From Longimicrobiales bacterium (GTDB lineage: Bacteria > Gemmatimonadota > Gemmatimonadetes > Longimicrobiales > Gaopeijiaceae), in NCBI GenBank assembly GCA_965219445.1, contig CBDCNQ010000005.1, positions 832,001 to 896,000 on the forward strand: a DNA stretch of 64,000 nucleotides, read 5' to 3'. The position numbers and the translations under genes are program-made. Under the pieces are notes generated by a model that saw nothing but the letters and a program-made list of their open reading frames with translations, did no database searches and was not told where the DNA came from. Shown here piece by piece: positions 43,127 to 43,391 of the stretch. How positions within the stretch are numbered: the stretch's first letter is position 1; each line of letters opens with the position of its first letter.

Positions 43127-43160
43127 AAAAAAGGCCCTCGGGAGAACCCGGTGGCCTTTT
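43127..43160 (-). terminator. Attenuator terminator T2
   Basis: mRNA AAAAGGCC-AC-CGGG-UUCU-CCCG-AG-GGCC-U6. Confidence 0.75.
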
Positions 43161-43181
43161 GATCCTGGAAACGATACCCAC

Positions 43182-43209
43182 AAAAAAGCCACCGAATGTC
43201 TCCGGTGGC
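43182..43209 (-). terminator. Attenuator terminator T1
   Basis: mRNA GCCACCGGA-GACA-UUCGGUGGC-U6. Confidence 0.85.
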
Positions 43210-43237
43210 GTTTCAGGGAATCTTGTCGTGTGTATGC

Positions 43238-43333
43238 CTATACGACGTCTCCCCGACACCCCACCGGGCTCGGACAAGAACATCGGCAACAACACCTCTT
43301 GAGCATCATGACATGCGTCCTTTTACAACACAT
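43238..43333 (-). CDS. Cys-rich leader peptide 1: MCCKRTHVMMLKRCCCRCSCPSPVGCRGDVV (alternative start 43309)
   Basis: 8 Cys in 31 aa; AGGA RBS 8 nt before ATG 43309; followed by T1 and T2. Confidence 0.78.
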   Translation of the reverse strand: MCCKRTHVMMLKRCCCRCSCPSPVGCRGDVV

Positions 43334-43363: not shown

Positions 43364-43391
43364 ACGCTAATCGCCTGAAGCGCCCTGTCAA
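43364..43391 (-). promoter_or_regulatory. Sigma70-type promoter of the cys leader
   Basis: TTGACA-N16-TAGCGT just upstream of leader 1. Confidence 0.65.

Follow-up and report, generated by a model that had tools for sequence, protein, structure and literature searches.

Predicted Shared-Arm Coupling of Twin Terminators in a Cysteine Leader-Peptide Attenuator Upstream of cysH in Longimicrobiales

The cysH Operon and Its Leader Region

The window analyzed here is the whole 64,000-nt stretch (positions 832,001–896,000 of contig CBDCNQ010000005.1, GenBank assembly GCA_965219445.1) from a Longimicrobiales bacterium, and the regulatory element that we describe lies, together with its operon, entirely on the minus strand (coordinates are therefore given in descending order). 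The first regulated gene is cysH (42842–42147), which encodes a PAPS/APS reductase matched above cut-off by NCBIfam models NF002537 and TIGR00434 and is followed by the gene of a sulfite/nitrite reductase hemoprotein (NirA/Sir-like, 42066–39781) for which the reductase families score below their cut-offs. Downstream of the reductase come an ORF of 211 aa without an NCBIfam or Pfam match (39784–39149), an ORF that we take to be a chelatase (39135–38224), and a CysG/HemD fusion for which the cobA/cysG families score above cut-off.

The leader region opens with a candidate promoter-like site at 43391–43364 (TTGACA at 43391–43386, a 16-nt spacer, and TAGCGT at 43369–43364), both hexamers of which are invariant in nine of nine aligned leaders from congeners; the promoter scan found no promoter, this site scoring under the scan threshold. 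Leader ORF 1 (43309–43238) has 23 codons, a conserved start with an AGGA 9 nt upstream of it, and a peptide, MMLKRCCCRCSCPSPVGCRGDVV, with six Cys residues (CCCRCSC plus one more). An in-frame upstream ATG prepends MCCKRTHV to this peptide (43333–43310, minus strand) in the window and in genomes G001 and G006, and is missing from most homologues. For this element we predict the role of a cysteine leader-peptide attenuator placed before the cysH–sulfite reductase–siroheme genes of Longimicrobiales. The organism likely employs leader-peptide attenuation, since its genome also carries a His-rich leader ORF and a terminator before hisG, which together constitute a candidate histidine attenuator (approximately 821987–822171 of G000:C5, locus L317). 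At the gathering score, Rfam places no riboswitch, T-box or leader family on the leader; its sole match in the window is a cobalamin riboswitch (RF00174, 51943–51805, minus strand).

Two terminator-like hairpins follow leader ORF 1. Terminator T1 (43209–43182) consists of a 9-bp stem (43209–43188) and a U6 tract (−16.5 kcal/mol), with the U-tract about 53 nt past the stop codon of leader 1; this distance is 52–64 nt to the predicted terminators of single-terminator relatives. Terminator T2 (43160–43127) comprises an A-tract, a stem with a 2×2 internal loop, and a U6 tract (−20.9 kcal/mol for 43160–43129). The spacer between them (43181–43162) is variable in sequence and nearly constant in length, the distance from the T1 stem to the T2 stem being 30–33 nt across homologues. 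A separate module lies further downstream, composed of leader ORF 2 (43041–42955), with eight consecutive Cys codons, and terminator T3 (42930–42898), for which leader 2 supplies its own donor (duplex −19.3 kcal/mol); antitermination by leader 2 was not reproduced at equilibrium, T3 standing at 0.96–1.00 in all five states modeled. We also considered T2 as a bidirectional terminator and rejected this, given that there is no convergent gene and the neighboring MATE gene is divergent.

Alternative Pairings Among the Leader, T1 and T2

T1 and T2 share a 5′-arm word, as an earlier note on this DNA had observed: GCCACCGG occurs at 43209–43202 in T1 and at 43155–43148 in T2 (minus strand), although this 8-mer by itself is not rare, with nine copies in the window over both strands. 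In the window the T1 and T2 units agree at 22 of their 33 columns, and in the homologue L025 at 25 of 33, and their alignment suggests that T2 is likely a tandem duplicate of T1, so that cross-pairing between the two would come free. Tandem terminator pairs are few in this genome, with only five found among 540 terminator-like hairpins, T1/T2 being one of them.

The leader segment that the earlier note had named as donor (43271–43261) does lie inside the leader ORF, beginning at the third base of the codon that follows CCCRCSC. We delimit the antiterminator donor as 43271–43249, with a core, CCGGUGG, at 43267–43261 and an extension to 43249; it can alternatively fold as a short local hairpin. 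Its acceptor (43220–43202) comprises the bases upstream of T1 and the T1 5′ arm. The 7 bp originally claimed between leader and T1 are present but were an undercount, as the helix continues to 17 pairs (43267–43249 with 43220–43202), which form the predicted antiterminator 1. The pairing between the T1 3′ arm and the T2 5′ arm was likewise counted short: its 11 bp exist, and up to 20 pairs (−28.5 kcal/mol) are available when the loop and U-tract of T1 are included, two of these 20 being shared with the leader:T1 helix. The loop, 3′ arm and U-tract of T1 (within 43209–43182) thus constitute a second donor, and the 5′ half of T2 (within 43160–43127) is its acceptor. When the 540 terminator-like hairpins of the genome are ranked by how well the 3′ arm is partnered downstream, T1 comes second (−19.9; mean −9.3, sd 2.8). 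The third complementarity that had been described, 11 bp including one G-U between the leader and the T2 5′ arm, is present in the sequence as claimed.

We hypothesize that these arms form a relay in which one stall at the early Cys codons disables both terminators, and we hold this to be the probable reading on comparative and computational grounds. A ribosome translating leader ORF 1 and stalling at its early Cys codons would leave the leader RNA to capture the T1 5′ arm; the 3′ half of T1, released in this way, would in turn capture the T2 5′ half before T2's own 3′ arm exists. With cysteine plentiful, a ribosome at the stop codon would cover the donor extension and T1 would form, consuming its 3′ arm; T2 would then also form and act as a second stop for polymerases leaking through T1. 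At the moment of the T2 decision, the U-tract of T2 should still be in the polymerase while that of T1 should be free to pair with the T2 A-tract, an asymmetry that would favor the relay. A lower leak would be the benefit of such an arrangement, which would likely tighten repression.

Occurrence in Relatives

A DNA search recovered the leader from eight of the 11 other genomes of the genus, and leader, T1 and T2 together are found in nine of the 12 genus genomes; the twin form also occurs in three genomes (G092, G161 and G154) that belong to two other genera. cysH is present in 47 of 251 genomes of the family, for which 47 flanking loci were screened. Outside the twin-terminator group (n = 35 loci), 29 loci carry a Cys leader plus one terminator, and a second terminator at T2's distance was seen at none of the 35; the remaining six gave no call, two of which show a leader by eye. 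The donor and acceptor words of the single-terminator relatives differ, by eye, from those of the window. Single-terminator Cys attenuators upstream of cysH (L026–L045 and L047–L061) are spread over many genera of the family, and L055 has two Cys ORFs with a terminator behind each.

For collection scans the pattern fixed the leader donor and the T1 5′ arm alone and left T2 unspecified. These scans yielded at least 248 matches, at least 55 of which passed a filter for Cys and U-tract and at least 26 of which are distinct (12 genomic and at least 14 metagenomic). Leader, T1 and T2 are all found in each of the 26 distinct homologues kept; the leader is Cys-rich in all 26, Cys richness being a filter criterion. 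These rows are kin and not independent, 24 of the 26 forming one clade. In seven of the 26, cysH stands directly after T2 and leader 2 is absent, from which it follows that leader 1, T1 and T2 are a unit of their own. A loose pattern matched 198 of 314 family genomes, mostly by chance, and the real loci among the matches listed were all already known. Contigs from four RNA runs, mostly less than 95% alike, include some that span the leader through T1 and T2; no RNA end was seen in them, and these contigs may be DNA, since one of them extends beyond the promoter-like site.

Comparative Evidence for T1–T2 Coupling

Across the homologues T2 is a hairpin of uneven quality, and it might be read as a pause site or stabilizing hairpin, for instance one that sets when ribosomes load onto leader 2, and not as a working terminator. 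Its internal loop, its energy of −11.5 to −18.8 kcal/mol without U-tract pairs (24 main-clade rows), and the interruption or loss of its U-tract in L004, L085, L087, L150 and L152 are in keeping with such a role. Most rows, however, have at least five U directly after the T2 stem, and T2 has been retained in the seven homologues that lack leader 2; we regard this role as highly improbable. In L024 and L025, T2 is a perfect hairpin with U6–7.

Positions 2–8 of the T2 5′ arm can pair with the T1 3′ arm in all 26 homologues, and positions 3–9 can pair with the leader in the same 26. The two donors part at the edge of the arm, where positions 1–2 and the A-tract pair with the T1 arm and U-tract but with the leader in 0/26. 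Within the arm, position 5 pairs with T2's own 3′ arm in only three of the 26, and in the other 23 the donor-matching base mismatches its own stem. Position 5 has undergone five inferred changes, each A>G (L180, misaligned by one column, having been corrected by hand for this count), and position 6 two, each C>T, with G-U pairing to the donor kept every time; in nearby unconstrained columns, A>G makes up 32 of 59 changes and C>T 21 of 48, and given these background rates the pattern would lend modest support to coupling. The sole two-sided change is that of L025, in which U>C in the T1 3′ arm makes the pair with T2 G-C and leaves T1 with an A-C mismatch. Covariation of the T1 3′:T2 5′ helix among homologues, which the earlier note had named as a check, did not reach significance, with 94–126 of 500 shuffles scoring as high.

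The absence of significant covariation is one of several points that suit a simpler reading, namely that T2 is a duplicate of T1 that serves as an unregulated partial or fail-safe terminator, its cross-pairing a by-product. The likeness of the two units would make their complementarity automatic, a single terminator suffices in most genera, and the change in L025 could stem from gene conversion or from an error in assembly. Against this reading, the T2 5′ core shows fewer changes per column (1.2, a value that a single misaligned row has raised) than do the inner positions with which it pairs on the 3′ side (2.2) or the spacer (3.5), the donor-matching base at position 5 has been kept at the cost of a mismatch in its own stem, and a constitutive, perfect T2 such as that of L024 and L025 should leave the operon silent. 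We judge it improbable. As the leader and T1 donor words are the same, conservation of the T2 arm cannot on its own distinguish between the two donors. The argument for a function is drawn from the choice of arm that has been conserved and from the need to pass a strong T2: with cysH straight after T2 in seven of 26 homologues and T2 perfect in L024 and L025, some read-through route is needed.

Folding Models

For the RNA left free by a stall at Cys7, the minimum-energy and centroid folds both contain the two antiterminators (z = −4.47; none of 200 shuffles was as stable). The anti-T2 hairpin, with the small hairpin that the spacer folds inside antiterminator 2 (−2.5 to −11.2 kcal/mol over the 26 homologues), is more stable than T2 without U-tract pairs in 26/26. 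Co-transcriptional folding was modeled with a script that uses ViennaRNA energies, direct-path barriers and a fixed ribosome edge, and that is crude, noisy and rate-sensitive. The earlier note had proposed that the leader takes the T1 5′ arm and the freed T1 3′ arm takes the T2 5′ arm, and in the script this domino is indeed the outcome for stalls at Cys6–8; its support is comparative and computational. With the ribosome stalled at Cys6, Cys7 or Cys8 in the window, T1 formed at 0.00–0.01 and T2 at 0.17, 0.00 and 0.00, respectively, and with the ribosome at Cys18 or the stop codon both formed at 0.97–1.00; a stall at Cys12 gave T1 1.00 and T2 0.59. Of the other rate settings, three preserved antitermination and the slowest (k0 = 2e4/s) abolished it.

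Extended to the 26 homologues with one fixed stall edge, the kinetic runs turned T1 off in 19, among which 16 had T2 off as well; a ribosome placed at the stop let T1 form in 22/26 and T2 in just 14/26. When eight failing rows were retried at other edges, both terminators were off in L006, L166 and L025 and partly so in L009, and T1 persisted in L024, L116, L007 and L077, with no switching at any of four edges in L024 and L116. At equilibrium, T1 lies below 0.5 on stall and above 0.5 at the stop in 26/26, and T2 exceeds 0.5 in 4/26 on stall and in 21/26 at the stop.

The models also bear on a second route to the same end, in which the T1 3′ arm displaces the leader once polymerase is past T1 and the released leader pairs directly with the T2 5′ arm, again bringing both terminators under control. 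The 11-bp leader:T2 pairing and its constancy at positions 3–9 make this route feasible, and it reaches 0.66 in the otherwise mixed outcome of a Cys10 stall and 0.94 at equilibrium in L006. L006 is, however, the only homologue of the 26 in which it wins at equilibrium, as against 21 for the relay; moreover, T2 positions 1–2 and the A-tract match T1 and never the leader, and the compensating change in L025 sits in the T1 arm and not in the leader. As the main account of the locus we consider the direct route unlikely, and the models suggest for it a minor part.

Returning to the relay, when antiterminator 1 was forced in the window, P(T2) was 0.01, whereas 200 random T2 stems built to a similar pattern averaged 0.75, with 7.5% of them below 0.05; these random stems replaced controls with a flipped T2 stem or a flipped donor, which made accidental new pairings and were not counted. 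Under the same constraint, T2 fell below 0.5 in 21/26 homologues and, at equilibrium, beat the relay in L009, L024, L025, L124 and L180. Without a ribosome the model was mixed, and one shorter run gave T1 0.25 and T2 1.00, with the T1 arm caught by the Cys codons. An AND gate, considered from this run, was rejected: the duplex of T1 arm and Cys codons has little stability (−4.6 to −15.2 kcal/mol) and lacks conservation, and it is unremarkable against shuffles in about half of the 26 homologues.

Comparison with Known Attenuators

The his attenuator is a chain of helices built from six segments and is known with one terminator only. More generally, the classical attenuators (trpL, hisL, thrL, leuL and pheL) are outlined, in the available part of the source, as a leader ORF with codons for the product and an antiterminator set against an intrinsic terminator (10.1101/834739). 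The cysH leader resembles these in its leader ORF with a ribosome-binding site and a run of regulatory codons, in its operon making the sensed amino acid, and, as predicted, in an intrinsic terminator about 50 nt past the stop codon and a leader-overlapping antiterminator exclusive with that terminator. It differs from them in its cysteine signal, in having two terminators per leader, and in the proposed use of the T1 3′ half as the antiterminator of T2.

One stalling leader followed by two adjacent Rho-independent terminators is known from erm(K)/erm(D) of Bacillus licheniformis (Kwak 1991, cited in PMC4335068), which, in that secondary account, shares with our element the combination of one leader ORF and two intrinsic terminators; stalling there is antibiotic-induced and the gene is an erm methylase resistance gene, whereas here a Cys-codon leader precedes cysH. 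Cys leader ORFs that sense charged tRNA-Cys are likewise described, in the excerpts available, as mycobacterial polycysteine sORFs, actinobacterial cys leaders, and uORFC-8-2 before cysS in Rhodobacterales. Unlike the present element, the mycobacterial case studied acts on translation, the actinobacterial leaders are, in those excerpts, reported with no terminators, and uORFC-8-2, which sits before cysS, has a single predicted terminator.

Partial sources offer further parallels. The Salmonella mgtCBR leader is also under serial control but uses two ORFs, comparable to leader 1 and leader 2 here, rather than a single ORF serving two terminators, and the gammaproteobacterial rimP leader likewise has two terminators, with no leader peptide described in the section concerned (section 7, PMC2965389). 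A relay of alternative helices has been named in the phrase "chains of RNA helices" in attenuation (Lopatovskaya et al. 2010, as named in PMC4833913), and the zipper attenuator of pLS20, as excerpted, controls one terminator. Our search, confined to the open-licence literature, turned up no publication that treats this element or describes twin terminators of an amino-acid leader as coupled arm to arm. Two terminators per leader (ermK) and Cys-sensing leaders are already known, and the predicted arm-to-arm relay would be a variant within this kind of control. If true, the relay would make terminator duplication a simple evolutionary way to multiply repression without a second sensor, and would add terminator-based cysteine attenuation in Gemmatimonadota. 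At 140 nt, the element is amenable to testing in vitro or with an E. coli reporter, and could be reused as a low-leak switch.

Variant Loci and a Three-Hairpin Lineage

In two metagenome loci of one lineage (L085 and L152), a deletion took leader 2 and the U-tract of T2, and T3 now follows T2 by nine bases. On stall, the kinetic model puts T3 at 0.00 by way of the freed T2 3′ arm, and at the stop it puts T3 at 1.00; at equilibrium T3 is favored in every state, so that the T3 step in this lineage would be purely kinetic. The underlying T2–T3 complementarity may be fortuitous, as it is also present where leader 2 intervenes. In the window, control of T3 by the T2 3′ arm was considered and rejected, for the possible duplex (−14.1) is 208 nt off and weaker than that with the leader-2 donor. 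It seems plausible, if not quite probable, that terminator duplication gives rise to a self-extending relay in which every 3′ arm that is released goes on to disable the hairpin after it, with two terminators in the window and three hairpins in L085/L152, where T2 would serve as relay only. If so, relatives with one, two and three steps would be a natural series for how attenuators gain dynamic range.

Other loci have been rearranged around the element. An IS1595-family transposase, a C5 DNA methylase and an unknown ORF lie between T2 and leader 2 at L062 (G006:C2:2888500–2895400), where an ORF of 761 aa stands behind T3; cysH was not found in G006 with the query used. Leader and cysH occur twice, about 26 kb apart and with an identical leader, in G092:C1 (L018 and L046), which reflects either duplication or an assembly artefact. 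L002 (G007:C7) has kept all three terminators and both leaders but lost cysH, of which the start alone remains, joined in frame to the reductase.
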